Assembly (NCBI GenBank): GCA_963675665.1
Contig: OY776510.1
Span: 2,400,001-2,464,000, forward strand
Origin: Spirochaetia bacterium
Lineage (GTDB): Bacteria; Spirochaetota; Spirochaetia; UBA9216
Reading direction: 5' to 3'
DNA: 64,000 bases
Below are positions 7,196 to 61,669 of the stretch, in pieces; within the stretch, counting starts at the first letter, position 1; each line of letters begins with the position of its first letter. Under the pieces are notes generated by a model, which was not told the DNA's origin, ran no database searches, and saw only the letters and a program-made list of their open reading frames with translations. Position numbers and translations under genes: made by a program.

Positions 7196-7238
7196 CGTTT
7201 TATAGACATACGGGGATGTGCCCGATAAGGAGAATCAG

Positions 7239-8519
7239 ATGAAAGAAAAGCTCGCCATGGAAGGCGGACCTAAAGCTAAAACTACTGCGACGTATCCGAT
7301 GTATCCGGGAGGGTTGGAAATAGGTGAAGAGGAAAAAAAGGAAGTGCTCGAAGTCCTGGAGAGAAAATATCTGTTCAGGTATTACGGGCCGGAAAAATAT
7401 CCGTCCAAGGTAAAAGAGTTTGAAACCCGATTTGCGGAAATGGTCGGGGCGAAAAATGCATTGGCTGTAACTAACTGTACCGGGGCCCTTATAACATCAT
7501 TGGTTGCCTGCGGTATTGGCCCGGGAGATGAGGTCATTGTCAGCGGTTATACTTTTTTTGCTTCATGCGCCGCTATTGTTGCAGCAAAAGCTATCCCGGT
7601 AATTGCCGAAGTAGATGAAACGCTGACGCTGGATCCTGTTGACTTTGAAAAGAAAATTACTCCGTCGACAAAAGCGGTAATAGTAGTTCACATGAGAGGA
7701 GTTCCCTGCGATATGGACAGGATAATGGCTATAGCTCAAAAGCACAATCTGAAGGTGATTGAAGACTGTGCTCAGGCTGTGGGAGGTTCCTATAAGGGGA
7801 AAGCGCTCGGGACTTTCGGAGATTGCGGCTGCTACTCTTTTCAGTACCATAAGATCATTACTGCCGGTGAAGGCGGGATGATAGTGACCGATGATGATCG
7901 CATTTATGATCGATGTATGGGGTATCATGACACCGCAGCCTGCTGGAGGCCTGAGAGGTTTGCTGAGCAGCGCTATGAAGGGGAGCTCTTTGCCGGTGTT
8001 AATTACAGGATGAGTGAACTGACGGGGGCTGTAATGAATGCCCAGCTTTCAAAACTGGATAATCTTGTTGCTCTTATGAGAAGAAATCAAAAAAGGATAA
8101 TTGACGGAATACGTGAAACAGACGGAATAACAATTCGACCGGTAAATGATCCGGAAGGAGATGTCGGAATATGCCTGATGTTTTATTTGGACAGTTCGGA
8201 TAAGGTTGAGCCCTTTGTGAAGGCTTTGAATGCGGAAGGCGTTGATGCGGGCGGCGTTTTTGATGCTGCTGTTCCCGATTGGCATGTATATTCTCACTGG
8301 AAACACATTATTGAGAAAAAAACGCCTACCGAAGAAGGCTGCCCGTGGACTTGTCCGTTTCATAAAGGCAAGGATATCGAGTATTCCGAAGATATGAATC
8401 CGAATACTCTTGATTACCTGGGAAGGGTTGTACATCTTGATATCCCATCACAACTTACAGTAGAAGAGTGCGATATGATTGCAAAGGGAATTAATAAGGT
8501 TGCGGCTCATTTTGCGTAG
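7239..8519 (+). CDS. DegT/DnrJ/EryC1/StrS-family PLP aminotransferase (paralog 2)
   Basis: YLFRYYG, GDEVIVSGYTFFAS, IEDCAQAVGG, SFQYHKIITAGEGG, GVNYRMSE. ATG 7239 has an AAGGAG SD. Confidence 0.92.
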   Translation: MKEKLAMEGGPKAKTTATYPMYPGGLEIGEEEKKEVLEVLERKYLFRYYGPEKYPSKVKEFETRFAEMVGAKNALAVTNCTGALITSLVACGIGPGDEVIVSGYTFFASCAAIVAAKAIPVIAEVDETLTLDPVDFEKKITPSTKAVIVVHMRGVPCDMDRIMAIAQKHNLKVIEDCAQAVGGSYKGKALGTFGDCGCYSFQYHKIITAGEGGMIVTDDDRIYDRCMGYHDTAACWRPERFAEQRYEGELFAGVNYRMSELTGAVMNAQLSKLDNLVALMRRNQKRIIDGIRETDGITIRPVNDPEGDVGICLMFYLDSSDKVEPFVKALNAEGVDAGGVFDAAVPDWHVYSHWKHIIEKKTPTEEGCPWTCPFHKGKDIEYSEDMNPNTLDYLGRVVHLDIPSQLTVEECDMIAKGINKVAAHFA

Positions 8520-8546
8520 GCACACACTGAAAGGGGAGTATGATAT

Positions 8547-9662
8547 ATGGCCTTGAAATTTGATATTCCTCATGGCGAAGTGGAACGAAGAAAAGATGTT
8601 GTTCGCAGAGTGTGGGACTATAAAGAGGTTGATCATATTCCCGTCTGTTTTGATCTTAAATACAATCCCGGGGGGATAACGGTTAGAGAAGAACTGACGG
8701 ATAAGGAGAAGCAGCTTGAATTGCGTTTATATAATATTGAAAAAAGTATAAACGAAATTCCTGATGACTATATTCCATCGTGTTTTCTCAATATCGGGTG
8801 TGTGGGCGTTGATGTGGCATATGGAGCGGAAGTTTTCTGGGAAGACGAAGCCAGGAATCCGTATATAAAAAAAGAAGTAATTAACAAGACTGAAGATATT
8901 TTCAAGCTGCAAAAACCTGATGTAAGAAAAGACGGAATGTTTCCGATGTTTCTTGATCTTATGAAATATGTGATAAAGGAAACTGAAGGATACATTCCGG
9001 TGTCGTGTCTGGATAATAACGGTATTACGGGGGTTGCCTGTGATCTTCTGGGAGCAGACAGGTTCTACATGATGCTCCTGGATGATGAGGCGGCCATGAA
9101 GCATTTGCTTGATATGATAAGTGATACCATCATTGAATTTACTGATGTATGTATTGAAATAGCCGGTGGTATCAACAATGTTACTTCTACCGACTGGTTT
9201 TACTTTTGGACGCCTGAAGGCCGGAAAGGGCATGTTTCCTGTGATGCCAGTGCAAATTACGGCCCGCAAATGTTTAAAAAGTATGATATTCCATTTAATA
9301 ATAAAATCTTTGAAAAATATGGAGCAGGCTTATTACATAATTGCGGACCGAATCCCTGCGGTCTCGAGTATCCTGAGCATTCGCAAAATCTTGCCGGTGT
9401 AAACCTTGCATATAAATATTCCAAAGACGATTTCGCTCGGATGAAAAAAGCGTACAGCGGGAAAAATATAATTTACATTATTTTTGATAATGAATCTCCA
9501 GAAGAAGCCTTATCAGGATGGAAAACGGCAATGGAAATCCTGTCCCCGGATGTTATCTCAATACCTATAGTTTTTATAGCCGAGGAAACAGATGATATAG
9601 CACGCCTCTATGAGAGATATCTGAAAGTGGGGAAAGAGTACGCCCGAAGAGTATGGCGTTGA
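8547..9662 (+). CDS. Uroporphyrinogen decarboxylase / MtaA-CmuA-like (corrinoid methyltransferase-family) protein
   Basis: Pattern 'LGADRFYMMLLDDEAAMKHLLDMISD', CDASANYGPQMFKKY and the Zn-type LLHNCG motif typical of the URO-D/MT superfamily. Confidence 0.7.
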   Translation: MALKFDIPHGEVERRKDVVRRVWDYKEVDHIPVCFDLKYNPGGITVREELTDKEKQLELRLYNIEKSINEIPDDYIPSCFLNIGCVGVDVAYGAEVFWEDEARNPYIKKEVINKTEDIFKLQKPDVRKDGMFPMFLDLMKYVIKETEGYIPVSCLDNNGITGVACDLLGADRFYMMLLDDEAAMKHLLDMISDTIIEFTDVCIEIAGGINNVTSTDWFYFWTPEGRKGHVSCDASANYGPQMFKKYDIPFNNKIFEKYGAGLLHNCGPNPCGLEYPEHSQNLAGVNLAYKYSKDDFARMKKAYSGKNIIYIIFDNESPEEALSGWKTAMEILSPDVISIPIVFIAEETDDIARLYERYLKVGKEYARRVWR

Positions 9663-9729
9663 AAATATTTTATAATGGATTTTATGGTGTAACCATAGGA
9701 TAATAAAAATTTTATTAAAGGACGGTGTT

Positions 9730-10986
9730 ATGAAGTCAGTGAGAAAAATTGGTGTCTGTATCATGCTTCTGGTTTTACTGGGAATTATCCCGGTTTTTGC
9801 CGGTGGTGCACAGGAGAAATCTGATGATGGAGTAGTAAAACTCCAATTCGCAAGCTGGATGGTAGCTGAGGCTTCAGGCGGAGAGGAAATTATCCCTGCA
9901 AAGATAGCTGAATGGGAAGCTGCACATCCCGGTGTTGAAGTGGAAGTTGTTCCTCTTGGATGGGAAGAAACACCGGATAAAATCATCCAGCAGACCATTG
10001 CGAAAAATATGCCTGACATTTTTACTATTGAGTCTTTATGGCTTGGTAAGTTTGAAGGCATGCCGAACTGCGTAGAAGATCTGAGTTCTTACATGGACGC
10101 AGGTTTTACTTCGGAGCTCATTCCTGCATATAAAAGCGGGATTATGAACGGTAGAACCGCCGGTCTGTTGTGGAGTCCGAACCCGATGTTCATTGTTTAT
10201 AACAAGGAGCTGGCAGCAAAAGCCGGGGTCTCCGGAACGCCGAAAAGTCTGGAAGACTGGGTTTCGCAGGCTGAAAAAATAAGCGCCCTTGGAGACGATA
10301 TATACGGTCTCGGTCTGCAGCTGGGTATTGATGAATATTCGGCAGACTTTTTTCATATCCTTGCCTGGATGAAAGGTGCCGATCTTCTTGATGCCTCCGG
10401 AAAACCTGTGGTGGATTCTGCAGAAATGGCCGATACGGTTGATCTTGTCAAATCTCTGGTCGACAGGAAGATTGTTCCCTTCGGTGAGGAAGTAAGAAAT
10501 TTGAGAACGATGTTTGCTCAGGGAAAGCTCGGGTTTTTTATTGAAGGCCCATGGATTGCCGGTATACTGGATGCGGAAGGAATGTCGAGAGACGAATGGG
10601 GCGCTGCTGCTGTGCCTGGAAATGTATCTCCCTGTTCTCACCTGCTGTGTATGTCTGCGCAAACGGAGAATAAGGATCTTGCATGGGATCTTATGAAATA
10701 TATTGTTTCCGAAGAATCTCTTACGAGTGAGTATTTTAAGGGTACCGGTTTGCTTCCGGTAGTGGCATATCAGTATGATAATGCCATTTATAATGATGAG
10801 CCCACCCGAATCGCTTTGGAAGCAATGTCAAATCTTAAGAATCCCAATGTATGGCAATCCCAGAAGAAATATGAAATTGAAATAGCTTTCATGGAGGTTG
10901 TTCAGAAAATCCTTCTTAATGATGACGATATCGGTAGCTCGTTAAGCGCTCTTAATGAGGACATTGCTGAAATCATTTCAGAGTAG
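9730..10986 (+). CDS. Carbohydrate ABC transporter substrate-binding protein (CUT1)
   Basis: Signal peptide ending VFAGGAQE. SBP_bac_1-like motifs (VYNKEL, FAQGKLGFFIEGPW, DLAWDLMKYI). Confidence 0.88.
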   Translation: MKSVRKIGVCIMLLVLLGIIPVFAGGAQEKSDDGVVKLQFASWMVAEASGGEEIIPAKIAEWEAAHPGVEVEVVPLGWEETPDKIIQQTIAKNMPDIFTIESLWLGKFEGMPNCVEDLSSYMDAGFTSELIPAYKSGIMNGRTAGLLWSPNPMFIVYNKELAAKAGVSGTPKSLEDWVSQAEKISALGDDIYGLGLQLGIDEYSADFFHILAWMKGADLLDASGKPVVDSAEMADTVDLVKSLVDRKIVPFGEEVRNLRTMFAQGKLGFFIEGPWIAGILDAEGMSRDEWGAAAVPGNVSPCSHLLCMSAQTENKDLAWDLMKYIVSEESLTSEYFKGTGLLPVVAYQYDNAIYNDEPTRIALEAMSNLKNPNVWQSQKKYEIEIAFMEVVQKILLNDDDIGSSLSALNEDIAEIISE

Positions 10987-10991
10987 TACAG

Positions 10992-11007
10992 AGGGCCTTC
11001 GGGCCCT
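10992..11007 (+). other. C(UUCG)G tetraloop hairpin after SBP gene (probable mRNA stabiliser or partial terminator)
   Basis: AGGGCC-TTCG-GGCCCT. Confidence 0.5.
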
Positions 11008-11030
11008 TTGATTTTAATAGGGGGGTATTG

Positions 11031-11942
11031 ATGAAAGATAGTACTAAACCATTGTCCGGCCATTATCTCAGCGACAGGATGTTTGCTTTCCTCCTGCTTC
11101 TTCCGGCTATAGTAGTGATAATTTTTATTATTGTTGTACCGCTTGTTACCGGAATTTATACAAGTTTTTTCAGATATTTTATGTCTGATTCCAGGGGTAT
11201 GGAATTTGTAGGTTTTCAGAATTATATTAGAATGTTCAGCAGGGGAGCTTTTTGGAATGCCTTTTTGAACACTCTGGTATATGTAGGAGGCTGCGTCCTG
11301 GGAGAGTTTGTAATCGGTTTTACTCTGGCTCTGCTTTTAAACTTTAGTTTCAGGGGCAAAGAGATAATAAACAGCCTTTTCTTTGTGTCGTGGATTATTC
11401 CGTCTATTGTTGTCGCCCTGATAACAAAGTTTTTATTTTTTGATCATTATCACGGAATAATTAATGTAGTACTTCAAAATCTGGGAATAATTGATGAATT
11501 TCTTCCCTGGTTGAAAGATCCAAACCTGGCAATGCCTTCGATACTTATAGCGACTGTATGGAAGATGTTTCCATTCATGTTTGTCCTTCTTTATGCGGGG
11601 CTTCAGGCTATACCGATTTCCGAAATAGAGGCTGCGAGGATAGACGGCGCAAATGCTTTTCAAAGATTTTTCTATATCACAATCCCTAATATGAGAGAGA
11701 TTATTGCCCTTGCCACCGTGCTGGAATTTATATGGATGTTTCAGTATATGACGATTATCTGGACTACAACAAAAGGCGGGCCGGCAGATGTGACTACAAC
11801 TCTACCGGTTATGATTTACAGGGTTTCGTTCAAAGGAAGCATGAATATGGGTTATGCTTCGGCAATAGGAGTTTTCTGGATGCTTTTTCTTCTGGGCTTC
11901 AGTATTTTTTACGTAAAAATGGTCGGAAAGGAGGAGAAGTAG
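11031..11942 (+). CDS. Carbohydrate ABC transporter permease (MalF/UgpA type)
   Basis: FVGFQNY, EAA motif EAARIDGANAFQRFFYITIP, GGPADVTTTL, MGYASA. Confidence 0.92.
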   Translation: MKDSTKPLSGHYLSDRMFAFLLLLPAIVVIIFIIVVPLVTGIYTSFFRYFMSDSRGMEFVGFQNYIRMFSRGAFWNAFLNTLVYVGGCVLGEFVIGFTLALLLNFSFRGKEIINSLFFVSWIIPSIVVALITKFLFFDHYHGIINVVLQNLGIIDEFLPWLKDPNLAMPSILIATVWKMFPFMFVLLYAGLQAIPISEIEAARIDGANAFQRFFYITIPNMREIIALATVLEFIWMFQYMTIIWTTTKGGPADVTTTLPVMIYRVSFKGSMNMGYASAIGVFWMLFLLGFSIFYVKMVGKEEK

Positions 11943-12808
11943 TGAGACAGCCGGGAAAGATGAACAGAACGAGAATAATAAAAACTATCAGAATAGTAAT
12001 TATTATAATTCTGCTTACTATAACATTATCGCCGCTTTACTGGATGGTGAATGTATCATTCAAGAATCAGGATGAAATCTTTCAGATTCCTCCTACTTTT
12101 TTTCCGAACAATTTTACGCTTGAGAATTATAAAGCTATTCTGATTGGAAATTTGTCTTCTTCCATTAAATTCTTAATGTATTTTAAAAACAGCCTGATAG
12201 TTGCAGCATTGACGGTTGTCGTTACTTTGCTGGTTGCTACACCGGCCGCATATGCCCTTTCAAGGGTCCGGTTTAAAGGTAAAAGGATGCTGATATATTT
12301 TGTGCTGATTTCACAGATGTTTCCAATTGTATTGATTCTTATCCCCCTCTATCAATCATTTCTTCGGTTGAATCTGGTCAGTACATTTGCAGGCCTTATG
12401 CTGGCAAATATGATGTTTGCCCTGCCGTTTTCAATATGGATGCTGAAAGGATATTTCGATTCAATACCGGGGGTTCTGGATGACGCTGCCAAAGTTGACG
12501 GTTGCAGTCGTATGCAGGCAATGCTTCTGGTAATCATGCCGAATGTCAGGCCGGGGCTTACTGCTGCAGCTATAGTGGTTTTTATTCAATGTTGGGATGA
12601 ATTCATGATTGCCCTGACCGTAATGGATAAAAATTCGATGAGGACTCTGCCTGTGGGCATTATTCAGTCTTTTGTGGGTGAGTTCTCGATAAAATGGGGA
12701 GAGATGATGGCTGCTTCCGTTATAACGACAATTCCGGTTGTTATCATCTTTATTTTTCTCAGCAAGAATCTTATCGGCGGACTGACTGCGGGCGCTGTTA
12801 AGGGATAA
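11942..12808 (+). CDS. Carbohydrate ABC transporter permease (MalG/UgpE type)
   Basis: DDAAKVDGCS EAA motif, WDEF, TLPVGI, GGLTAGAVKG. Start taken at GTG 11942 (AGGAG SD); ATG 11960 is also possible. Confidence 0.9.
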   Translation: MRQPGKMNRTRIIKTIRIVIIIILLTITLSPLYWMVNVSFKNQDEIFQIPPTFFPNNFTLENYKAILIGNLSSSIKFLMYFKNSLIVAALTVVVTLLVATPAAYALSRVRFKGKRMLIYFVLISQMFPIVLILIPLYQSFLRLNLVSTFAGLMLANMMFALPFSIWMLKGYFDSIPGVLDDAAKVDGCSRMQAMLLVIMPNVRPGLTAAAIVVFIQCWDEFMIALTVMDKNSMRTLPVGIIQSFVGEFSIKWGEMMAASVITTIPVVIIFIFLSKNLIGGLTAGAVKG

Positions 12809-12824
12809 TATTGGAGTATGAATA

Positions 12825-14258
12825 ATGCAAATGAATAATCTGAAGGTGTTATCCGATGAGGAAGTTGCAAACATAGTAAAAGCCTCATCGAGGATCCTCA
12901 GTGAAACAGGAGTCAAAATCGACAGCAGTACTGTTCTTGAAAAGCTTTCAAAAAAGGGCGCTGTAGTTGATTTTAAAGCGGGTATAGCAAGGTTTCCGGA
13001 GGAAATACAAAGAAAATGCCTGGAGTCGGCTCCCAAGGAAATACCTGTAGTTAACCGTAATGGAGAATATCAATTTACAATCGGCGGAGACAGTACTGTT
13101 TTTGCAAGCGGGCATAATGCTGTTTTTTTTGATGACTATATAACAGGTGAGCACAGACAGTTCGTTCGAAAGGACGTCAGAGATTATATTGCGGTTGCTC
13201 ATAATCTGGATGAGGTTGATTTAATCGGTTTGCCGGCCTCGCCTGGAGATGTGCCGCCGGCAAGTTCATTATTATATTCGCTGATGGATACATTTACTTT
13301 AAGTGATAAACCTGTTTATTTCTCTACTGAAAGCGACAGAATAAATCATTATGCAATTGAAATGGCTCAAGCGTCTGCGCCTCTGGCTGTGAATAAAGGT
13401 GCATATATGATCAGCCAGCTGTCTCCCACCTCTCCGTTGTTCTGGGAGAAGGGCGCCGTACAGGGAGTTGTTGAATGTGCGGAAAGAGGGTTTCCTGTTT
13501 CAATCCTTCCTGAACCTATAGCAGGCGTAACGGCTCCATATTCGCTTTCAGGACTTGTGACCGTGCATAACGTGGAAGCTCTTTCGGGAATAATTATCAC
13601 ACAGCTGATTAATCCCGGAACCCCTGTAATATGGGCAAGCAGCTGGACAACTTTTGACATGAAAAAAAGCGCTGCACTTGTCGGTTCTGTAGAAACTACA
13701 CTTTGCAGAATTGCCGGAGCCCAGGTTGCAAAGTATTATAATCTTCCCCTGCATACGACCGCCCCTAATTCGGACAATCATTCGCCTGATGAGCAGAACA
13801 GCTGGGAAAAGACTTTAAGTTCCTTTTGTGCAGCTTCGTCCGGAAATAATCTTATTATGAATATGGGAATGTATGCCTGCGGTATGACTATCAGCCTGGA
13901 GCAGTTAGTGCTTGATGCTGAAATAATCGGTCAGATTAAAAGGTTGAGAGAAGGTGTTGATGCTTCGGTTGATATGATAGCTGAAGAACTGATTGGAAAG
14001 GTCGGATACAGGGGTTCTTATATTATTGAAGATCATACCATAGATTTGTTGAAAACAGGTGAATACCGGGAACCTCTGATAGCTGTCAGGCAGAATCTTG
14101 ATTTATGGAAAGAAAAAGGAGCAAAGAATTCCATGGAACTTGCTCACGCTATGGTTAACAAGTTGCTGTCCCAGCCTTTGCCTGTGGTTGATGATAAAAA
14201 ATATGCAGAGATGTTTTCAATAATTAATACTTGTGAAAAGGAGTTGCTAAATGGCTAA
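12825..14258 (+). CDS. Trimethylamine methyltransferase (MttB) superfamily protein, non-pyrrolysine
   Basis: LKVLSDEEV..ILSETGV, GVTAPYSLSG, QLINPGTPVIW, FDMK, AQVAKYYNLP, SDNHSPDEQNSWEKT, SLEQLVLDAEI. No in-frame TAG. Confidence 0.88.
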   Translation: MQMNNLKVLSDEEVANIVKASSRILSETGVKIDSSTVLEKLSKKGAVVDFKAGIARFPEEIQRKCLESAPKEIPVVNRNGEYQFTIGGDSTVFASGHNAVFFDDYITGEHRQFVRKDVRDYIAVAHNLDEVDLIGLPASPGDVPPASSLLYSLMDTFTLSDKPVYFSTESDRINHYAIEMAQASAPLAVNKGAYMISQLSPTSPLFWEKGAVQGVVECAERGFPVSILPEPIAGVTAPYSLSGLVTVHNVEALSGIIITQLINPGTPVIWASSWTTFDMKKSAALVGSVETTLCRIAGAQVAKYYNLPLHTTAPNSDNHSPDEQNSWEKTLSSFCAASSGNNLIMNMGMYACGMTISLEQLVLDAEIIGQIKRLREGVDASVDMIAEELIGKVGYRGSYIIEDHTIDLLKTGEYREPLIAVRQNLDLWKEKGAKNSMELAHAMVNKLLSQPLPVVDDKKYAEMFSIINTCEKELLNG

Positions 14259-15066
14259 TATTAGTGTGTGTGCTGAATGTTTCTTTACCGATTTGCCTTT
14301 TGCAGAAAGGGTGAAGAAAATAGCTGCTATCGGATACCGGGATATTGAATTCTGGCATCCGGAAGGAACGTTTAACGGAAGTGATATTGATTTTACGCAA
14401 GCCAAGGATGCGGCGACGCTTAACAGTTCGGCCGGTTCGGTCGGCGTGAAATATAATGATTTCGCATTTGGCGCATGGGACGGTTCGATCGGCGGTAATG
14501 CGACAAAAAAAGAAGACCATGAAAAATGGCTGCAGCAGATTGATGCAATGCTGGCTTTTGCTCAAAGCATCTCCTGTCCAAAAGGGATAATTCTTTCGGG
14601 AATGACTCAGCAGGGAATGAATCGTGATCTTATGAACGGGAACCTGTTGATTGCGTTTGGAAAAGCCGCTTCCGCTGCTGAAAAAGCAGGCATTACGCTT
14701 GTGATAGAACCGCTTAACAGTCTTGTAGATCATGCCGGGTATTATCTTGATAAAACCGGTGCGGCTGTTGAACTTATAAGACAAATTAATAGCCCTAACC
14801 TGAAAATGCTGTACGATGTTTATCATATGCAGGTCATGGAGGGGAATATTCTGGATTTTATTGAAAGAAATATCGATATTATCGGACATTTTCATTCTGC
14901 CGGAGTTCCCGGACGTGCCGAATTGTTCGATACGGAAGTCAATTATCCTGTTATTATAAAGAAAATTGATGAACTTGGATATGACGGATGTTTTGGTCTT
15001 GAGTATTTCCCAAAACTGGAAGATGAAGAATCATTAAAAAGAACTCTGGAGTATTTAACTGTCTGA
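14251..15066 (+). CDS. Hydroxypyruvate isomerase (Hyi)-like TIM-barrel sugar isomerase
   Basis: IEPLNSLVDHAGY, LYDVYHMQVMEGN, GHFHSAGVPGR, GCFGLEYFP. Confidence 0.85.
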   Translation: MANISVCAECFFTDLPFAERVKKIAAIGYRDIEFWHPEGTFNGSDIDFTQAKDAATLNSSAGSVGVKYNDFAFGAWDGSIGGNATKKEDHEKWLQQIDAMLAFAQSISCPKGIILSGMTQQGMNRDLMNGNLLIAFGKAASAAEKAGITLVIEPLNSLVDHAGYYLDKTGAAVELIRQINSPNLKMLYDVYHMQVMEGNILDFIERNIDIIGHFHSAGVPGRAELFDTEVNYPVIIKKIDELGYDGCFGLEYFPKLEDEESLKRTLEYLTV

Positions 15067-15088
15067 TTAAGAATTCTGAATAAATAGT

Positions 15089-15133
15089 GAGAGCCTTTAG
15101 TGCTGAATTGCCGCCCGAAGGCTCTTTTTTTTG
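15089..15133 (+). terminator. Intrinsic terminator ending the MttB operon
   Basis: GAGAGCCTT...AAGGCTCTT followed by a T-run. Confidence 0.65.
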
Positions 15134-15204
15134 ATCGCTGGAAAATAAATATCAATAACTAATTTATAGATGACCAGATAACTAAGATATGATATTGTCC
15201 ATGT

Positions 15205-16176
15205 ATGACTGAAATAACTGACAGCAGGATAAAAATAAAGGACAAGTTGGGCGCTGTAGCTGTGCGCCTGGGGTTTTTCAGGGGTTCTTATTCGATTTCT
15301 CCGGGATTATACAATTTGAATAATCCCGATTCAAACTCCCCGGTTTTTGTTTCTGCAAATTATAAATTGTCGTTTGATATTCTCAGAAAATCATTGAAGG
15401 GCATAAGTTGCTGGTTGCTTGTTCTGGATACAAAAGGAATAAATGTATGGTGTGCTGCGGGTAAGGGGACTTTCGGGACCGATGAGCTTGTTGAACGTAT
15501 TGACAAAGTGCAGCTTTCACGTCAAGTGAACCATAAAAATATAATTGTACCGCAGCTAGGCGCACCAGGGATTAAAGCTCGGGAAATCAGGCTGAAAACA
15601 GGATTCAGGGTGATTTACGGGCCGGTTGAAGCCAGGGACATTCCTGAATTTATTTCAAACGGACTAAGAAAATCGGAGCAAATGCGAAGAAAGACTTTCA
15701 GGATCCGTGAACGTCTTGTTCTGGTTCCGGTTGAGCTGATTCATGCATGGAAGCTCCTGCTGCCGATAATTGCTGCCAGTATACTATTCAGTTTCTTTAC
15801 GGCCGGGCCGGAGAAGTTTGATTTGCTTTCTGCTGTTTTGCCCGGTATTCTGGGTGTAGTGTCAGGAGGGCTGTTGATGCCCACGCTCCTTCCCTGGTTG
15901 CCTTTCAGGGCGTTTTCATTGAAAGGGGTATTCAGCGGAGTAATAGTTGCACTGTTATGGCTTATAACGACAGGACCTGAGCTTGCAGCTGCATTGTTCG
16001 GCGGCGGTTTGCTGATAACGTCATCATCCTTTGTGGCAATGAATTTTACCGGATCCTCGACTTTCACTTCATTGTCCGGGGTTAGGAAAGAGATGAGAAT
16101 TGCGGTTCCTGCGCAGATTGTTTCTGTTTTTATTTTTACCGTATCCGCAATTTTTCTTGCTGTTTTTGGAGGTTGA
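15205..16176 (+). CDS. hgcA: Mercury methylation corrinoid protein HgcA
   Basis: Cap-helix motif DTKGINVWCAAGKGTFG, SPVFVSANYKLSFD, PQLGAPG, YGPVEARDIP, and a C-terminal TM domain with MNFTGSSTFTSLSGVRKEM. Directly followed by hgcB. Confidence 0.96.
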   Translation: MTEITDSRIKIKDKLGAVAVRLGFFRGSYSISPGLYNLNNPDSNSPVFVSANYKLSFDILRKSLKGISCWLLVLDTKGINVWCAAGKGTFGTDELVERIDKVQLSRQVNHKNIIVPQLGAPGIKAREIRLKTGFRVIYGPVEARDIPEFISNGLRKSEQMRRKTFRIRERLVLVPVELIHAWKLLLPIIAASILFSFFTAGPEKFDLLSAVLPGILGVVSGGLLMPTLLPWLPFRAFSLKGVFSGVIVALLWLITTGPELAAALFGGGLLITSSSFVAMNFTGSSTFTSLSGVRKEMRIAVPAQIVSVFIFTVSAIFLAVFGG

Positions 16177-16178
16177 TT

Positions 16179-16475
16179 TTGATTTATCTGAAGAATGTTT
16201 CTACGCTTGAGTATGATCGGAACAGCTGTACGGGATGCGGCATGTGTATTGAGGTCTGTCCGCATAATGTTTTTGAGCGCGAAGATGGAAAAGTTAAAAT
16301 TCTTTCAAAAGATCGATGTATGGAATGCGGTGCCTGCATGATGAACTGTGCATTCGATGCAATACGGGTAAATAAAGGAGTCGGTTGTGCTTCTGCTGTA
16401 ATCAATGGAGTTCTGAAGGGGACTGAACCGTCCTGCGGATGCAGCGACGGTAATAGCAGCGGCTGCTGTTGTTGA
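16179..16475 (+). CDS. hgcB: Mercury methylation 2[4Fe-4S] ferredoxin HgcB
   Basis: CTGCGMCIEVCP and CMECGACMMNC motifs, GVGCA, Cys-rich tail (..GCCC). TTG 16179 follows a GGAGGT SD (track start 16173). Confidence 0.95.
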   Translation: MIYLKNVSTLEYDRNSCTGCGMCIEVCPHNVFEREDGKVKILSKDRCMECGACMMNCAFDAIRVNKGVGCASAVINGVLKGTEPSCGCSDGNSSGCCC

Positions 16476-16483
16476 GTGAAGTA

Positions 16484-17512
16484 TCAATCGATAGTATCGG
16501 ATGTTATAATTTCAATCGGAATATCCAGTATATCGGCCTCAGGCGACTGGTGTCTTATCAGGTGATCGAACATGGTTTTTATCAGAAGGTACCCCTGGTA
16601 TTCCGGGTTTTGTCCCAATGTGAAATCGATTGTTCCGTTTTTAAGCAGGTTTACGGTCGCGGGAACAACATCGTGTGAAATAACCTTAATTTTTCCAACT
16701 TTGCCGGCTATCTCCAGGGCCCGGCCTATTCCGGCGCAGCCTCCACCCGTTATGTAAATACCTTTCAGGTTAGGGTGGTTTTGGCAGTATTCAAGAACAA
16801 TTTTAAAAGCTGCTTCAGTCCGGTCCTGGTTTTCCCGGATATCTATAATATTAACGTGTGGGTGAAAGTCGTTGATCCTTTCCTGGAAGCCTCTGAGCCG
16901 GTCCTGGTGACAAGAGAGGCTTTTTGAGCTGATGATTATTCCGATATCGCCTCCTTCGGGAAGGAGTTTGCTCATCAGTCCGGCGGCAGTACGTCCGCCC
17001 CTGAAATGGTTCTGCCCGACAAAGCAGATATCGTCTATTTCCTTAATCTGTGAATTAAAAGTAATAATCGCTGTTCCCTTTTTGCCCATAAGGTTAATCT
17101 TTTCGACAACCTGGGGGTCGTTCAGCGGGAAAACCGCTACGCCTGCAAAGTTTTCATTCTCAAAATGGTTTAAAATACCGATTTGTTCAGCAGGTTCAAG
17201 TGTGCTGAGCATTTTTATTGTTATGTCGATACCGAATAATTTGAATTCATCCCGGGCTTTGTGTATTCCCTGAATGATTTCGTGGACAAAGGGGTTGTAT
17301 TCGGGAGTGAGAATAACTCCTATTCTGGTTTTTTCCTTGCTCATAACAAGGGCTTTTCCAAGATAATTGGGCTTGTAGTTCAGCTCTTTAGCTATTCTGA
17401 GAACACGTTCCCTGGTTTCTGTTTTCACACCCGGACGGTCGTTAAGTACTTTGTCTACCGTACCGCGTGATACTTCCGCCAGTTCTGCGATCTGCTTTAT
17501 TGTAACAGACAC
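16484..17512 (-). CDS. LacI-family transcriptional regulator
   Basis: VTIKQIAELAEVSRGTVDKVLNDRPGV HTH plus a periplasmic-binding-type sensor domain. Confidence 0.93.
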   Translation of the reverse strand: MSVTIKQIAELAEVSRGTVDKVLNDRPGVKTETRERVLRIAKELNYKPNYLGKALVMSKEKTRIGVILTPEYNPFVHEIIQGIHKARDEFKLFGIDITIKMLSTLEPAEQIGILNHFENENFAGVAVFPLNDPQVVEKINLMGKKGTAIITFNSQIKEIDDICFVGQNHFRGGRTAAGLMSKLLPEGGDIGIIISSKSLSCHQDRLRGFQERINDFHPHVNIIDIRENQDRTEAAFKIVLEYCQNHPNLKGIYITGGGCAGIGRALEIAGKVGKIKVISHDVVPATVNLLKNGTIDFTLGQNPEYQGYLLIKTMFDHLIRHQSPEADILDIPIEIITSDTID

Positions 17513-17676
17513 CCTCTGCCTCCAGTAATGTCTATTATATGTGTAAAAAAAAACTTTTGCTATACGTTTTTAAGGAAAAATAACACACGTGCACAATTGA
17601 TTATAAAAATAGTAACGTAAAATTCGTGTTAAGAGTATAAATGAGCAAAAATACGGCAAATATCATCAGAAAAACA

Positions 17677-17724
17677 TTGCAATCCGGGTATTCATATGTT
17701 AACATAAAAATGTGCACGAGCACA
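17677..17724 (+). promoter_or_regulatory. Sigma70 promoter with adjacent LacI-type operator
   Basis: TTGCAA-17-(TGn)TAACAT at 17677-17705. Near-perfect palindrome TGTGCACGAGCACA at 17711-17724, with a second related site (AACACACGTGCACA) at 17582-17595. Confidence 0.7.
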
Positions 17725-17819
17725 ATTTTATGTTGTAAGCTATCAATAAGAAACTGTTTTACATTTATACACAAACATATTTTGGGGTTTGTGTTTGTGG
17801 AATATCAGAAGGAGTGACT

Positions 17820-18692
17820 ATGAAATTTGGAACGTTGTATTCCTACTGGAATAATACCTGGAGCTGTGACTATTTCAGAACAGCTGAAAGGGTAAGACGT
17901 GCAGGTTTTGATATCCTTGAAATAGGAGCAGGGCATCTGCTGGATATGTCAAAAGAGGATATTCTGAAACTGAAGGAACATTCAGCAAATTTGGGGCTGA
18001 CTGTAACCTGTAATATAGGTCCTGCGAAGGACAAGGATGTTGCATCTGCAGATGCGGATACTCGGAGAGCAGGCATTACATTTCTGTCGGATATCATGAA
18101 AGCAATGAAGCTTCTCGGATCAAAAACGCTTGTAGGTGTTCAATATACATACTGGCCGAATGATTTCAGTGATCTTGATAAACCTGCTATCTGGGCGCGC
18201 GGAGTTGAAAGTGTAAAGGAACTCGCGAAAACAGCTGAAGACTGTGATGTGCAGATGTGTCTTGAGGTTGTCAACAGATTTGAGACTCACATTCTAAATA
18301 CAGCAGAAGAGGCTATATCGTTTTGCAATGAAGTAGGGCACAAGAATGTCAGCATACTTCTTGATACATTTCACATGAATATTGAAGAAGACAATATTGC
18401 TGATGCGATCCGGTTGGCAGGCAGCAGGCTTGATCATCTTCATGTCGGAGAAGGAAACCGGAAGCTTCCGGGCGAAGGTTCGCTTCCCTGGACTGAAATT
18501 GGGCAGGCATTACGAGATATTAATTTTACAAAAGGCGTTGTTATGGAACCGTTTTACTTTTCAGGGGGAAAAGTGGGCGAGGATATCAAGGTCTGGCGTG
18601 ACCTCAGTGAAGGTGCAACTGCCGAAGAGATGGATAAGCGCATAGAAACATCCTTAAAATTCCTCAGGAATAAATTCGTCGGTGAGGATTAA
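17820..18692 (+). CDS. Ketose 3-epimerase (D-psicose/D-tagatose 3-epimerase family)
   Basis: MKFGTLYSYW, EVVNRFE, LLDTFHMNIEE, HLHVGEGNRKLPG, VMEPF..GEDIKVWRDLS. Confidence 0.88.
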   Translation: MKFGTLYSYWNNTWSCDYFRTAERVRRAGFDILEIGAGHLLDMSKEDILKLKEHSANLGLTVTCNIGPAKDKDVASADADTRRAGITFLSDIMKAMKLLGSKTLVGVQYTYWPNDFSDLDKPAIWARGVESVKELAKTAEDCDVQMCLEVVNRFETHILNTAEEAISFCNEVGHKNVSILLDTFHMNIEEDNIADAIRLAGSRLDHLHVGEGNRKLPGEGSLPWTEIGQALRDINFTKGVVMEPFYFSGGKVGEDIKVWRDLSEGATAEEMDKRIETSLKFLRNKFVGED

Positions 18693-18696
18693 TTGA

Positions 18697-19641
18697 ATGG
18701 CTGAAATATGGACTATGGGTGAAATGATTGTAGAGATAATGCGGCCCAAGGCGGGCATGGATCTTGATAAGGCCGGCCTTTTTAAAGGTCCCTATCCCAG
18801 CGGGGCGCCTGCGATTTTTATAGATACAGTTGCGCGTATGGGACACAGCTCAGGCATTATAGGCGGCGTCGGTCATGATGATTTCGGGAAATGCCTTCTT
18901 GAGCGTCTGGAATCGGACGGAGTAGATTGTTCGAAGGTTGTGATCAGTGAAAGCGGAACTACCGGTGTGGCATTTGTAACATATTTTAATGACGGTTCAA
19001 GGAAGTTCCTTTACCATATCGGCAATACTCCTGCTGTTGAAGCCAAAGCTCCTGCGGCTTCTGAACTTGCGGGCATCAGGTTCTTCCATATTATGGGCTG
19101 CTCATTAATGGCTGAACCGAATTTTGCGAAAGAGATAATCAAAACAATGCACACGGCAGTTTCTATGGGAGCAAAGATAAGCTTCGATCCGAATATCCGT
19201 AAAGAACTGCTTAAAGACAACTCTGTTATGTCGATTGTTCATGAAGCTTTTAAAAATACAAACATCTTTATGCCCGGGGTTGATGAACTTCTGATGCTCA
19301 CGGAAGAAAGCACTGCGGAACAGGCTGTGAAAAAGTGTTTTGAGCAGCAATCAATGGAAATGGTTGTACTAAAGCGCGGATCAGAAGGCTGTACCGTTTA
19401 TACCCGGACCGGAACTTATGAAAAGGGCGTTTACAAGGTTGAAGCAGTTGATCCTACTGGCGCAGGGGACAGTTTTGACGGAGCATTTTTATGCGGGTTG
19501 CTGGAATCGCTGCCTGTAACTGAAGTTATTGAGCTTGCCGCTTCGGCGGGGGCTTTGAATACAGCTGCATTCGGCCCTATGGAAGGTGCTATTTCGGTTG
19601 AGAATGTAAAGCGCCTGATCTCTGCCGGTATTTCCGGCTGA
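18697..19641 (+). CDS. PfkB-family carbohydrate kinase (tagatose kinase-like)
   Basis: GPYPSGAPAIFID, FDPNIRKEL, DPTGAGDSFDGAF, GPMEG. Confidence 0.88.
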   Translation: MAEIWTMGEMIVEIMRPKAGMDLDKAGLFKGPYPSGAPAIFIDTVARMGHSSGIIGGVGHDDFGKCLLERLESDGVDCSKVVISESGTTGVAFVTYFNDGSRKFLYHIGNTPAVEAKAPAASELAGIRFFHIMGCSLMAEPNFAKEIIKTMHTAVSMGAKISFDPNIRKELLKDNSVMSIVHEAFKNTNIFMPGVDELLMLTEESTAEQAVKKCFEQQSMEMVVLKRGSEGCTVYTRTGTYEKGVYKVEAVDPTGAGDSFDGAFLCGLLESLPVTEVIELAASAGALNTAAFGPMEGAISVENVKRLISAGISG

Positions 19642-19657
19642 TATTTGAAAGGAACGA

Positions 19658-20980
19658 ATGGAAATGAGCGATATCTTATTAAGGATTGTAGAAAAGCAAA
19701 AAGCCGGCATTCCGGCTGGAATAGTTTCGGTTTGTACATCCAACGGCTATGCAATTAAATCCGCGATGAAACATGCCATGGAATATGACGTACCGGTTCT
19801 TCTGGAAGCGACGGCAAACCAGGTAGATCAGGCCGGCGGATATACCGGTATGAAACCTGTTGATTTTATCGCCTTTATTCATAATATTGCTCAGGAAATA
19901 AATTTTCCGGTAAAACGGATTATCCTGGGGGGGGACCATCTGGGACCTCTGACCAGAAAGCATCTGGATGAAAAAGAAGCCATGGAGTATGCGGAGGTCC
20001 TTGTAAGCGAATACGTCTCAGCCGGGTTTTCAAAAATACATCTGGATACTTCCATGAAGCTTGGAAGCGATCCCGCCGGAGAAGCGCTGCATATTTCAAC
20101 AGTAGCCGAACGCGGTGCCAGGTTGTGTATTGCAGCGGAAGCCGCATTTAAACAGCGGTCTGAAAAGTATCCGGCAGAAACACCTCCGTTTTACATTATA
20201 GGAAGCGAAGTACCAATTCCGGGTGGTGCGCAGGATCCGGAGGAAGGTGCTGATGTAACATCACCCGAACACTGCAGGGAAACCTTTGAAACATACAAAC
20301 AGGTTTTCAGTAAACACAATCTTGATGATGCCTTTAAAAGAGTCATTGCGCTGGTTGTTCAAACCGGTGCCGAGTTTGGAGACACCGATATCTATCCGTA
20401 CAGCTCTGAAAAAGCACGATCCCTGACGGAATACGGGCGTAAGAACCTTCCTTTTGTTTTTGAAGGGCATTCAACCGATTATCAGACCGAAGATTCCTTG
20501 AAAGCAATGGTAAAAGACGGTATTGCTTTTCTAAAAGTGGGACCGGCTTTAACTTTCGCTCTCAGAGAGGCCCTTTTTATGCTGGAGATGATTGAGCAGG
20601 AGGTTTACTACGGTACTTCCTGGGATGCTTCAAATTTCAGGGATGTGCTTGAGCTGGCAATGCTGAATAACCCGGGATATTGGAAGAATCATTATCATGG
20701 AGATGCAAGAAAGCAGTATTTTTCACGTAAATTCAGTTTTTCGGATCGTGCGCGTTATTTTCTTAATGATCCCGAGGTTGAAAAGGCTGTGAACTGTCTT
20801 GTCAGGAATATCAATAATTTTGAAATACCTATCTCTTTGCTGAGTCAATACATGCCGCGGGAGATGTATGAATTTGCGAAGAATAAAAGAGATTTGAAAG
20901 CGGAAGATTTAATTGATATGCATATCGGATTTTATCTTGATAATTATTACAAAGCGATTTTGCCTGATGAGTTGAGATAA
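19658..20980 (+). CDS. GatZ/KbaZ-family protein (putative tagatose-6-phosphate 4-epimerase)
   Basis: EATANQVDQAGGYTGMKP, LGGDHLGP, KIHLDTSM, GSEVPIPGG, FEGHSTDYQ, LKVGPALTFALREALF, SDRARY. Confidence 0.9.
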   Translation: MEMSDILLRIVEKQKAGIPAGIVSVCTSNGYAIKSAMKHAMEYDVPVLLEATANQVDQAGGYTGMKPVDFIAFIHNIAQEINFPVKRIILGGDHLGPLTRKHLDEKEAMEYAEVLVSEYVSAGFSKIHLDTSMKLGSDPAGEALHISTVAERGARLCIAAEAAFKQRSEKYPAETPPFYIIGSEVPIPGGAQDPEEGADVTSPEHCRETFETYKQVFSKHNLDDAFKRVIALVVQTGAEFGDTDIYPYSSEKARSLTEYGRKNLPFVFEGHSTDYQTEDSLKAMVKDGIAFLKVGPALTFALREALFMLEMIEQEVYYGTSWDASNFRDVLELAMLNNPGYWKNHYHGDARKQYFSRKFSFSDRARYFLNDPEVEKAVNCLVRNINNFEIPISLLSQYMPREMYEFAKNKRDLKAEDLIDMHIGFYLDNYYKAILPDELR

Positions 20981-30152: not shown

Positions 30153-31031
30153 TCAGGCTTTGACAATCATTCTTACAAGCTGATCAGCCCCGTTTTCTTC
30201 AAACCTGTAACCGCTGCATGTTTCTACACGCAGCCTCTGGTTCTCAAACCTCCGTTTGAAGGGGTAAAAAATGGTTTCTTTTTCAAAGTATACAGCTTCC
30301 CAGAAAGCGTTATACCCGGCGCCGCAGACAAGAAGATCGACGGCATTGAAATAATCGACCGCCGGAAAGAGTCCCTCCTGGAAATTGGTTGTGTAGATGA
30401 TTTGATAGCCTTCTTCTTCAAGGTAAGAGTATGTCTTTTTTATTTCTTCGTACTCCCCGGGTTTGCCGTTTACTGAAAACAGGCATATTTTTGAACCGCC
30501 GCCGGGACTGAGTTTTTCAAGAGCGGCGGCCCGCGGAAGAATTTCATCGCGGTTGCGGATAACTATCGGGTTGATCTGTTCCATCGTTATTTTGGAATCA
30601 AACGGCTCCGTGGCGATAATACGGTCATACTGCTTCGGTTCAAAAACAAGTGGGTCTCCCGGCAGGGGAATTGAGAAGGCGTCGTCCGATACCTGGCGGC
30701 ACAGAAATATTTTCAGGCAGTCGAACCCGTCTATGAAATGGCGGAGTGTATACCATGACAGGTCGACAAGAAGGACGTCGGGTTTAAGCGCTGCAAGTTT
30801 TAAAAAAAGGGCAGACGACTTGAAGTTATCAGCCCCAAGCTGTTTTTCGTTTTCCGGCGGCAGTTCGACGTGAGAAACGTTCTCCCTGTCCGCCAGTTCG
30901 CCGAAACCGCCGCAGTGAAGAATTGTAAAGTCCGCGTTTATCCCGTTCCGCTTCAGGGCTCGGGCAACGGAAAGCCCCTGAACAATATGCCCGGAACCGG
31001 TCATCATCGAAGAATAGTAAACTATGTTCAT
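30153..31031 (-). CDS. Hypothetical protein, GT-B glycosyltransferase-like
   Basis: N-terminal TGSGHIVQGLSVARAL, KPDVLLVD, DLLVCGAGYNAFWE, RRFENQRLR resemble MurG/PseG-like GT-B motifs. Confidence 0.6.
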   Translation of the reverse strand: MNIVYYSSMMTGSGHIVQGLSVARALKRNGINADFTILHCGGFGELADRENVSHVELPPENEKQLGADNFKSSALFLKLAALKPDVLLVDLSWYTLRHFIDGFDCLKIFLCRQVSDDAFSIPLPGDPLVFEPKQYDRIIATEPFDSKITMEQINPIVIRNRDEILPRAAALEKLSPGGGSKICLFSVNGKPGEYEEIKKTYSYLEEEGYQIIYTTNFQEGLFPAVDYFNAVDLLVCGAGYNAFWEAVYFEKETIFYPFKRRFENQRLRVETCSGYRFEENGADQLVRMIVKA

Positions 31032-31046
31032 TCCGGGCAAAGACTG

Positions 31047-32588: not shown

Positions 32589-32729
32589 AATAGTCCTCCA
32601 GTTAAAAAGGTAGCCCATTGGAACACAGCTGTCAATAATAAAGGAAGGAAACCGGGAATATGGATAACTTTACGGACAAGTATGGTTAACTTACGGTTCT
32701 AATTCTTTATCTTTTCTTTATCTTTTTTC

Positions 32730-61548: not shown

Positions 61549-61551
61549 ATG

Positions 61552-61662: not shown

Positions 61663-61669
61663 TTTTACA

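Follow-up and report, generated by a model that had tools for sequence, protein, structure and literature searches.

Do the two adjacent genes at positions 15205–16475 of this DNA form a true hgcAB pair, the accepted genetic marker for the production of neurotoxic methylmercury, and how did they come to lie where they do? A first-pass annotation of the 64-kb stretch analyzed here (the window) had reported an intact hgcAB locus at this place, in a probably sugar-fermenting spirochaete. Both reading frames were found to be open, each product passes the curated model of its family, and the gene identity, integrity and architecture of the pair all stand. That HgcA and HgcB are true and unfused is supported by the curated HMMs, by the motifs and the predicted fold, and by phylogeny.

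The first gene, hgcA (15205–16176, plus strand), is an open reading frame without internal stop that encodes a corrinoid-binding membrane methyltransferase of 323 residues. The protein matches the NCBI curated equivalog model NF040863 with 400.8 bits (E = 4.2e-120), passing the cut-off of 275 by 126 bits, with residues 5–317 aligned to positions 4–321 of the 325-position profile; no other match above cut-off was found in the whole genome. The HgcA cap motif has the general form N(V/I)WCA(A/G)GK and contains the cobalt-ligating cysteine. Here it reads NVWCAAGK at residues 80–87, and residue 83 is a cysteine and not a selenocysteine, as had been claimed, since its codon is TGT; the cobalt-ligating cysteine of HgcA from Pseudodesulfovibrio mercurii ND132 is Cys93 (PMC11588087). 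The stretch from N80 to G88 shows zero variation across 51 aligned HgcA sequences, and the protein agrees with the consensus at 86 of the 88 highly conserved columns (at least 90% agreement among 50 homologues). Residue 126 is an arginine in a column that is nearly invariantly histidine, with arginine also present in one of the 50 homologues.

The only Pfam domain of HgcA is CdhD (58.9 bits, residues 32–149), the N-terminal corrinoid domain of the type found in the corrinoid iron–sulfur protein (CFeSP). Five hydrophobic stretches form the membrane domain (residues 184–323), and an AF2 model of the protein (pLDDT 90.9) places five long helices at residues 182–200, 207–227, 237–256, 260–285 and 290–321, in line with the transmembrane domain noted earlier. 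The cap region (residues 81–90) has a mean pLDDT of 60 in this apo model, which does not show it as helical. A Foldseek search with the model ranked 9a0b_A, a computational HgcAB model deposited earlier, first (39% identity, E = 8.6e-20); next came five CFeSP chains (E = 3e-7 to 1.1e-5), while phmmer against PDB sequences retrieved CFeSP chains exclusively (E = 1.7e-11 over residues 13–151). Antisense reading frames are also present inside hgcA and hgcB (e.g., 15741–16265, minus strand) and were taken as shadows of the conserved coding strand; one resembles an antisense frame in a congener because hgcA itself is conserved.

The second gene, hgcB (16173–16475, plus strand), follows immediately after hgcA in the same orientation, an arrangement seen in 69 of the 88 loci compared. 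Translated from the first TTG (16173), HgcB has 100 residues. A ribosome-binding site, GGAGG (16168–16172, plus strand), is located inside the 3' end of hgcA; 6 nt separate it from a second in-frame TTG, at 16179, and the HgcB sequences of relatives start at the position aligned with this codon; HgcB is therefore probably a protein of 98 residues starting at TTG 16179. The hgcA stop codon (TGA, 16174–16176) sits 2 nt ahead of the same TTG, and the position of GGAGG within the end of hgcA points to translation of hgcB being coupled to that of hgcA.

HgcB matches model NF040864 with 125.4 bits (cut-off 99, E = 5.8e-37), residues 5–99 covering positions 2–93 of the 93-position profile, and its Pfam matches are to Fer4 families. 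Both of the [4Fe-4S] motifs and the terminal CCC described in the first-pass annotation are in place. The first motif is CTGCGMCIEVCP at residues 19–30 (CX2CX2CX3C at 19–29, then Pro), and the second is CMECGACMMNC at residues 49–59, with Ala and not Pro as the next residue. Cys72 lies within GVGCA, Cys98, Cys99 and Cys100 close the C-terminus, and the cysteines line up with those of relatives. They would match the cysteines cited for ND132 HgcB (C73, C94 and C95; PMC11588087), a probable correspondence drawn from the alignment with relatives. The usual HgcB end is CC, whereas the CCC tail was found in only three of 69 HgcB tails, those of the genome under study and of both copies of one congener.

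Taken as an analogy, the enzyme of P. mercurii (PMC11588087) suggests how the pair might methylate mercury. The five helices would anchor HgcA in the membrane and the corrinoid would be held by the N-terminal CFeSP-like domain, where Cys83, in the cap region, would be the lower ligand of the cobalt. The predicted ferredoxin HgcB, with its two [4Fe-4S] clusters, would supply low-potential electrons and so keep the cobalt as Co(I). Co(I) would be methylated by S-adenosylmethionine to methyl-Co(III), and the methyl group would then pass to Hg(II) to form methylmercury; the cysteines at the C-terminus of HgcB would probably present the Hg(II). According to one survey, all tested organisms with an unfused hgcA methylated mercury, and no spirochaete was among the experimentally shown methylators as of 2022 (PMC10087281).

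The pair was then placed in its surroundings. An intrinsic terminator of the upstream operon (15089–15132, plus strand) has a 10-bp stem of the GAGAGCCUUU/AAGGCUCUC-type and, after it, eight consecutive U; its MFE is -18.2 kcal/mol (z -2.97), and none of 200 shuffled sequences folded as well. A consensus terminator scan missed it because its loop is longer than the limit of 8 set in that scan. This element parts hgcAB from the MttB and TIM-barrel genes upstream. The 72-nt intergenic leader that follows (15133–15204, plus strand) is A+T-rich and is the putative hgcAB promoter region, placed there solely because the terminator precedes it; a sigma-70 consensus scan found no promoter-like site in these 72 nt (scan total 8, shuffle mean 6.6), and no clear Shine–Dalgarno sequence was seen ahead of hgcA. 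We consider it highly probable that hgcAB is a functional two-gene operon with its own transcription unit.

The pair had been described as lying between two sugar clusters, which is right for one side. Downstream is a LacI-regulated rare-sugar cluster with tagatose-kinase-like and GatZ-like genes and a D-psicose 3-epimerase (385.9 bits, cut-off 300). The upstream operon is mixed: it encodes an ABC transporter, a URO-D/MtaA-like protein (8547–9662, plus strand), a DegT aminotransferase, a TIM-barrel isomerase and a non-Pyl MttB-family methyltransferase (12825–14258, plus strand; PF06253, E = 4.5e-81; TIGR02369, 347.8 bits, under the cut-off of 525). When eleven neighbor proteins were compared by BLASTP with the reading frames of 96 hgc loci (our own locus and duplicate places counted in), no MttB, URO-D, TIM-barrel, epimerase, kinase or GatZ homologue was found, and only weak permease and LacI-family matches were returned. 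There is therefore no conserved hgcAB neighborhood.

The statement that no ArsR-like regulator or metal-resistance gene adjoins the pair holds, at the level of Pfam, for the whole window, and no match to the HgcC-type regulator model NF040962 was found in the genome. That this sets the locus apart from many others is true in part: a small regulator lies directly upstream in 41 of the 88 hgc loci compared, but none was seen in the other 47. The missing neighbor regulator is thus real, yet not rare. There is likewise no transposase, integrase or tRNA beside hgcAB.

The host is a spirochaete. Its closed genome of 5.15 Mb, rated 96.4% complete, gave three FlaA matches over cut-off, a family with no match in any of 14 control genomes. 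It also carries seven [FeFe]-hydrogenase-type genes (Fe_hyd_lg_C) and many sugar clusters. One search of this genome for each of the acetyl-CoA synthase CdhC, DsrA and CbiC found no match, while CobS is present; MerB had no match either, but as it had none in the control genomes, that result is uninformative. The host looks fermentative, in agreement with the first-pass annotation, as well as H2-producing and lacking the acetyl-CoA pathway. Its gene content suggests that it is unable to build the corrin ring, yet able to complete or salvage cobamides. With CobS present and CbiC unmatched, the predicted HgcAB activity should depend on corrinoid from outside.

How the pair reached this genome was addressed with five congeners (G001–G005), two genomes of a sister genus in the same spirochaete family (G008 and G010) and a Spirochaetales MAG (L011). 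One reading is that the hgcAB cassette was recently acquired by horizontal transfer from outside the spirochaetes and not inherited within the family. The distribution of hgcA is patchy enough to suggest it, with matches over cut-off in nine of the 61 genomes of the class (the genome under study counted) and in one of the five other species of the genus, G001, which has two copies. Disagreement between HgcAB phylogeny and species trees is also on record (PMC7438021), and a single clade of the 16 spirochaete HgcAs was rejected here (p-AU 0.00123). Several non-spirochaete HgcAs are up to 54% identical to ours, as similar as those of the sister genus (47–48%); the G001 copies are 56% identical.

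Synteny could be read in the same way. The LacI, epimerase and kinase genes are syntenic in G001 (73%, 77% and 84% amino acid identity), while its hgcAB sits elsewhere, adjoining DUF2147 and an aconitase-family gene, and no synteny joins its copies to ours. In a DNA search of the five congeners, the LacI-to-kinase part was found in G001 only, and 12825–15066, with the upstream MttB and TIM-barrel genes, had no match in any of them, so that hgcAB lies at a synteny break.

Against a recent arrival from outside stands the HgcA tree, a quick tree with SH-aLRT support, in which our protein groups with both G001 copies (96) and then with the sister genus and the Spirochaetales MAG (97). The CCC tail of HgcB is common to the congener copies only. 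The codon usage of hgcA is at the 79th percentile of 2081 reading frames of similar length and its GC3 is 0.435 (genome mean 0.432), both typical of the genome, and the mobile-element and tRNA genes that might betray an insertion are, as said, missing beside the pair. The closest HgcA outside its own 90%-identity cluster is only 58% identical in a search of 5.8 billion proteins, and no recent donor is therefore visible. Taken together, we regard recent transfer from outside the spirochaetes as unlikely. Since HgcA is 56% identical to the congener copies and the neighbor orthologues are 73–84% identical, vertical descent within the genus is not proven; transfer within the family would yield the same tree.

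The sister genus offers a clue to what may have happened instead. Its hgcAB and that of the Spirochaetales MAG agree with ours in HgcA clade, in gene order and in an hgcA/hgcB junction with overlap or near-overlap, but in all three a MarR-type gene, encoding a Cys-rich MarR-family protein, overlaps the start of hgcA, and in G008 and G010 a thioredoxin-type arsC (163.3 bits, just under the cut-off of 174.3) adjoins hgcB. Our locus has neither, and no close homologue of the Cys-rich regulator was found anywhere in the genome (best 25–28% identity). The HgcA lineage is most likely common to this spirochaete family, and in this genus hgcAB has probably moved to a new place, where it stands without the MarR-type regulator and the ArsC gene that flank the sister-genus copies. 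A dedicated metal(loid) sensor is therefore unlikely to control its expression.

The surroundings of the pair raise another possibility, that HgcA, through its corrinoid, accepts methyl groups from the MttB-family enzyme two genes upstream and that mercury methylation is a side reaction. A regulator-less hgcAB would then have been recruited as the neighbor of an orphan non-pyrrolysine MttB operon, with HgcA as a membrane-bound acceptor of methyl groups from an imported methylated substrate. The MttB-family and URO-D/MtaA-like genes lie on the same strand as hgcAB, and the window contains no B12-binding-domain gene, the nearest match being at genome position 2,514,808. A strain of about 97.2% identity preserves the MttB–hgcAB arrangement; it is represented by a contig from another study with another organism code that is collinear over 12800–18700 with 163 differences and no gaps, which speaks for the stability of the hgcAB locus as well.

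MttB-family enzymes, however, have cognate corrinoid proteins of the soluble B12-binding (PF02310) type, and this domain has 13 matches elsewhere in the genome. The strong terminator separates the two operons, the hgcAB copies of G001 have other neighbors, and homologues of the MttB, URO-D and TIM-barrel genes are absent from all of the roughly 90 other hgcA loci (duplicates counted). What HgcAB does natively is described as an open question (PMC10349881), but the methyl donor to HgcA in the single biochemical study was SAM and not a compound of the methylamine type (PMC11588087). We therefore judge both the acceptor role and the recruitment scenario very improbable; if the pairing were true, it would give the first concrete physiological role of HgcAB beyond accidental mercury methylation.

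Least probable of all is that the pair is a paralogue, either of the HgcAB-like fusion type or belonging, as a corrinoid protein of CFeSP (AcsC/CdhE) type, to the acetyl-CoA pathway: the fusion model NF043039 and the CFeSP gamma model NF003195 do match HgcA (201.9 and 86.5 bits), CdhD is its sole Pfam domain and databases give many homologues the name "acetyl-CoA decarbonylase/synthase complex subunit gamma", but the NF043039 scores (63.1 bits for HgcB) stay below the cut-off of 285 and the NF003195 score below 306, the latter match is restricted to profile positions 323–445 of 450, a TGA stop separates the two reading frames, CdhC has no match in the genome, hgcA is its lone CdhD-domain gene over cut-off, and HgcA falls within the HgcA radiation among those of its own family. 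The paralogue reading, which the first-pass annotation had itself raised as the outcome to look for, is refuted at the sequence level by the sub-cut-off scores, the separate reading frames and the tree position. The fusion proteins share a corrinoid domain, a cap-type motif and a ferredoxin module with our pair but are single polypeptides, and the fused forms have been reported as non-methylating (PMC10087281). The CFeSP large subunit (AcsC/CdhE; PDB 2h9a, 2ycl, 4c1n, 4djd and 9fzy) has a corrinoid-binding domain homologous to that of HgcA, whereas HgcA lacks its N-terminal 4Fe-4S and TIM-barrel parts and has a membrane domain instead, as well as the Cys ligand.

The true HgcA and HgcB pair is best compared with that of ND132, here by family models and shared features. 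Common to both are separate adjacent genes with hgcA before hgcB, the cap motif with its Cys ligand, the CFeSP-type corrinoid domain and five TM helices in HgcA, and in HgcB the two [4Fe-4S] motifs, a Cys after the second cluster and the C-terminal cysteines. The contexts differ: in ND132 arsR2 lies directly upstream of hgcA (10.1101/2022.10.17.512643), while no ArsR-like regulator precedes hgcA here, and ND132 is a sulfate reducer whereas the present host is a fermentative spirochaete.

This hgcAB is a real find but an ordinary one, one more divergent lineage in a family that already counts many thousands of sequences, and its annotation follows from NCBI's own naming model. Spirochaete hgcAB has been published already, isolates included (PMC7438021), fermentative spirochaete methylators are part of the literature (PMC7438021, PMC7573106, PMC7536318), and several lakes and seas are rich in spirochaete hgcA (PMC7536318; PMC7438021). 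By 2022, methylation had been shown experimentally solely within Desulfobacterota, Firmicutes and Euryarchaeota, as given in PMC10087281. A closed spirochaete genome with one regulator-free hgcAB is a well-defined candidate for a methylation test, and the sister-genus copies with their MarR-type regulator and arsC offer the natural comparison.

The hgcA gene lies at 15205-16176 (323 aa) and hgcB at 16173-16475 if read from its first TTG (100 aa), both on the forward strand according to the ORF list and the raw sequence, and no internal stop was found in either gene by these means or by a motif script. The script placed NVWCAAGK at HgcA residues 80-87, with a TGT codon for Cys83, and five hydrophobic stretches within residues 184-323; in HgcB it found CTGCGMCIEVCP at 19-30, CMECGACMMNC at 49-59, Cys72, and C98-C99-C100 as the terminus. 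The identity and integrity of the two genes are clear, and the first-pass annotation had been right on their coordinates, Cys-bearing NVWCAAGK, HgcB motifs and terminal CCC. The start of hgcB can be refined. GGAGG (16168-16172) abuts the TTG at 16173, and a second in-frame TTG (16179) lies 6 nt beyond. Because GGAGG is spaced 6 nt from 16179 and the HgcB N-termini of relatives start at the position aligned with it (MMYLKNVSTLE... in the congener), HgcB is probably a 98-aa protein starting at 16179. This start falls 2 nt past the hgcA stop, which suggests that the two genes are translationally coupled.

When the pair was scored with NCBIfam HMMs, a kind of check that the first-pass annotation had proposed, HgcA gave 400.8 bits on equivalog NF040863 (cut-off 275), end to end, and HgcB 125.4 bits on NF040864 (cut-off 99). 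Of the alternatives that the first-pass annotation had named, a corrinoid iron-sulfur protein (CFeSP)/ACDS gamma identity fails, as HgcA reached 86.5 bits against a cut-off of 306 over the model's last 123 positions only, and so does an HgcAB-like fusion protein (201.9 bits for HgcA and 63.1 for HgcB, cut-off 285). The only Pfam domain of HgcA is the CdhD corrinoid domain (residues 32-149), and HgcB holds only Fer4-type domains. N80-G88 does not vary across an alignment with 50 homologues, and HgcA matches 86 of the 88 columns where at least 90% of these homologues agree, the departures being H126R, shared by one homologue, and V128I. The AlphaFold2 model built from this alignment (mean pLDDT 90.9, pTM 0.84) has an N-terminal domain of alpha/beta type, followed by five long helices (182-321). 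No helix was drawn in the cap region (block 81-90, pLDDT 60), which we take as a limit of a cofactor-free model. The top Foldseek match in the PDB was a deposited computational HgcAB model (9a0b_A, E 8.6e-20, 39% identity over 332 columns), followed by five CFeSP large-subunit chains, these six being all the matches at E <= 0.001; a sequence search of PDB chains with HgcA returned CFeSP proteins only.

In Pseudodesulfovibrio mercurii ND132, the ferredoxin HgcB carries two [4Fe-4S] clusters, the methyl group comes from SAM and passes through a methylcob(III)alamin whose Co is ligated by the thiolate of the conserved Cys, and activity requires HgcA Cys93 and HgcB C73, C94 and C95 (PMC11588087). 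Judged by motif position rather than by alignment with ND132, the equivalents of Cys93, C73 and C94-C95 would be Cys83, Cys72 and the C-terminal CCC. If the pair works like its P. mercurii homologue, HgcB, with two [4Fe-4S] clusters, would act as the ferredoxin partner of HgcA, and the SAM-derived methyl group would pass through methylcob(III)alamin on HgcA, its Co bound by the Cys83 thiolate. By the same analogy, we infer cofactor binding, electron supply and Hg methylation by this pair.

The window sits in a single contig of 5.15 Mb (43.3% G+C), in a genome (G000) rated 96.4% complete where hgcA is the only CdhD-domain gene over cut-off. We read the host as a fermentative, H2-producing spirochaete that would salvage corrinoids instead of making them, because the genome encodes FlaA, the spirochaete flagellar sheath protein (three matches over cut-off, none in 14 control genomes), seven [FeFe]-hydrogenase-type catalytic domains and CobS, and because one profile search each of G000 gave no match for acetyl-CoA synthase CdhC, DsrA or CbiC. 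B12-binding domains gave 13 matches. The fermenting spirochaete proposed earlier agrees with these data.

The placement of hgcAB between two sugar clusters proved correct on the downstream side only. There, a LacI-family gene (16484-17512, minus strand), convergent with hgcB and ending 8 nt past it, heads a LacI-controlled rare-sugar cluster. It comprises a D-psicose 3-epimerase (385.9 bits, cut-off 300), a tagatose-kinase-like PfkB (281.5 bits, cut-off 420) and a GatZ/KbaZ-like protein (474.9 bits, cut-off 568.8), these three at 17814-20980 on the plus strand, as well as an OYE-family reductase and a ribose-type ABC transporter. The upstream operon (7218-15066, plus strand) is of mixed content: a DegT-type aminotransferase, a URO-D/MtaA-like protein (8547-9662), a CUT1-type ABC transporter, a non-pyrrolysine MttB-family methyltransferase (12825-14258; 347.8 bits, where the cut-off for the trimethylamine enzyme is 525) and a hydroxypyruvate-isomerase-like TIM barrel, all on the plus strand. 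It had no DNA match in the five congeners, and no B12-binding corrinoid protein was found within the 64-kb window. It is intriguing that an MttB-family operon lacking its own corrinoid protein adjoins hgcAB. A functional link between the two is nevertheless very improbable, because a terminator separates them and this adjacency was seen in no other compared hgcA locus. The terminator, a stem-loop with U8 at about 15089-15132 closing the upstream operon (-18.2 kcal/mol, z -2.97, none of 200 shuffles equally stable), had been missed by the consensus scan owing to its long loop. The same scan found no promoter in the 72-nt leader before hgcA, and at Pfam level the window showed no mobile-element genes near hgcAB.

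Contigs of four coded public sequencing runs, none of them recorded as RNA, were compared over 12800-18700. One contig of run X1 was identical throughout and may be the source. A contig of run X4, which belongs to a different study and organism code, covers the region gap-free with 163 differences (about 97.2% identity), so the MttB-TIM-hgcAB-LacI-epimerase order is stable in a second population. Run X7, labeled marine metagenome, covers hgcA and hgcB in part, with short pieces of mostly 95-99% identity.

Elsewhere in the window, a molybdenum-cofactor riboswitch (61539-61671, minus strand; 61.5 bits, gathering score 36) lies immediately 5' of an ORF of the aldehyde dehydrogenase family (PF00171; 60139-61548) and runs slightly into its annotated start. 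As this family is not known to be Moco-dependent, the pairing is an unusual one. At 30153-32618 (minus strand), two adjoining ORFs of 295 and 523 aa, flanked on one side by a sodium:solute symporter gene and on the other by a GntR-regulated sugar-phosphate cluster, had no Pfam match at E <= 1e-5.

HgcA exceeded the cut-off in 9 of 61 genomes of the class (G000 counted), in 4 of 11 of the family (G000, its congener G001 with two copies, and G008 and G010 of a sister genus) and in one of the five other species of the genus. A quick maximum-likelihood tree was built from 88 rows, comprising 79 of the 80 searched loci with a usable gene plus relatives; it omits L082, L084, L085, L087 and L088 (duplicates of places in larger loci), L027 (split gene), L064 (truncated) and L090 (fusion-like, 29.5% identity). 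G000 and both G001 copies form one group (SH-aLRT 96), joined by G008, G010 and L011, a locus of an uncultured Spirochaetales MAG (SH-aLRT 97); the remaining ten spirochaete rows are scattered. A single clade of all 16 spirochaete rows, a group set by taxonomy yet named after the tree was seen, costs 119.6 log-likelihood units and is rejected (AU test, p-AU 0.00123). Given these groups and this rejection, the HgcA tree follows the species groupings, a comparison the first-pass annotation had called for, at the ranks of genus and family and departs from them at those of class and phylum. Such discordance has been published (PMC7438021) and matches our tree.

Synteny in the congener G001 did not extend to hgcAB. 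There the LacI gene, the epimerase and the kinase have stayed together (aa identities 73.0%, 76.8% and, over a partial 113 aa, 84.1%), with an unrelated gene beyond LacI; the hgcAB copies of G001 are found on two different contigs, next to DUF2147 and aconitase-family genes. Identities to these copies (56.3% and 55.7% for HgcA, 67.0% and 65.0% for HgcB) are below those of the syntenic neighbors. The CCC tail of HgcB occurs in 3 of 69 tails, only those of G000 and the two G001 copies. By codon usage, hgcA ranks at the 79th percentile among 2081 ORFs of comparable length, and its GC3 of 0.435 compares with a genome-wide mean of 0.432 (sd 0.07). Among 5.8 billion clustered proteins, the best hits to HgcA outside its own two-member cluster are 58% identical, with E <= 1e-40 in 7995 of 8000 scored candidates. 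HgcA may have been transferred within the family; we conclude that its lineage is old in the family, was lost repeatedly and moved within the genus. The G001 copies, L093 (C14) and L094 (C42), lie on separate contigs and have the same neighbors, which are about 80% identical to each other. With 8% contamination reported for G001, the two copies may represent two populations binned together, not a duplication.

The absence of a regulator, described at first as unlike many hgc loci, is real but common. At Pfam level no ArsR, MerR or ars/mer gene was found in the 64-kb window, and G000 gave no match to HgcC-type NF040962. For each of the 88 rows, ORFs of 70 aa or more whose end lies no further than 450 nt 5' of hgcA were collected, two at most per row, and classed by Pfam, a scan that misses regulators that are shorter or elsewhere; it yielded 150 ORFs, with a candidate in 85 rows. 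A small DNA-binding regulator stands directly 5' of hgcA in 41 rows (MarR-type 17, ArsR (HTH_5)-type 20, MazE/AbrB-type 4), a Sigma-70-type gene in one, and 47 rows, among them G000 and both G001 copies, showed no such regulator. The 16 spirochaete rows divide into MarR 8, ArsR 1, sigma factor 1 and none 6. Proportions are comparable in a survey of 31 confirmed methylators, where arsR accompanies 14 and a prlF/abrB-type gene 8 (PMC10349881).

The MarR-type genes encode a Cys-rich protein of about 150-180 aa, with CC near the N-terminus and a Cys pair near the C-terminus, found directly 5' of hgcA and often overlapping it in several phyla (17 of 88 loci): L092:9133-9633 (G008), L091:10580-11080 (G010), L011:7365-7859 and 14 further loci. 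In G008, G010 and L011 it has 164-166 aa and overlaps the hgcA start; G008 and G010 also have an arsC-like gene of thioredoxin type immediately next to hgcB. No close homologue was found in G000 (best 25-28% identity), no NCBIfam equivalog fits, and a literature search found MarR-type genes 5' of hgcA mentioned for two organisms only (PMC10349881). Also directly 5' of hgcA are a DAHP synthase gene in seven Desulfuromonadales-type loci (L008, L028, L037, L046, L055, L066, L071) and a GNAT acetyltransferase in three Methanomassiliicoccales-type loci (L036, L049, L063).

Earlier studies describe spirochaete hgcA in contigs, MAGs and the genomes of some isolates, and propose a fermentative lifestyle for such carriers (PMC7438021, PMC7573106, PMC7536318); as of 2022 the phylum had no experimentally confirmed methylator (PMC10087281). 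This closed genome, with one hgcAB pair and no regulator beside it, is a test case for the phylum, and the pair also makes an interesting contrast with the copies of the sister genus, which carry a regulator and arsC.
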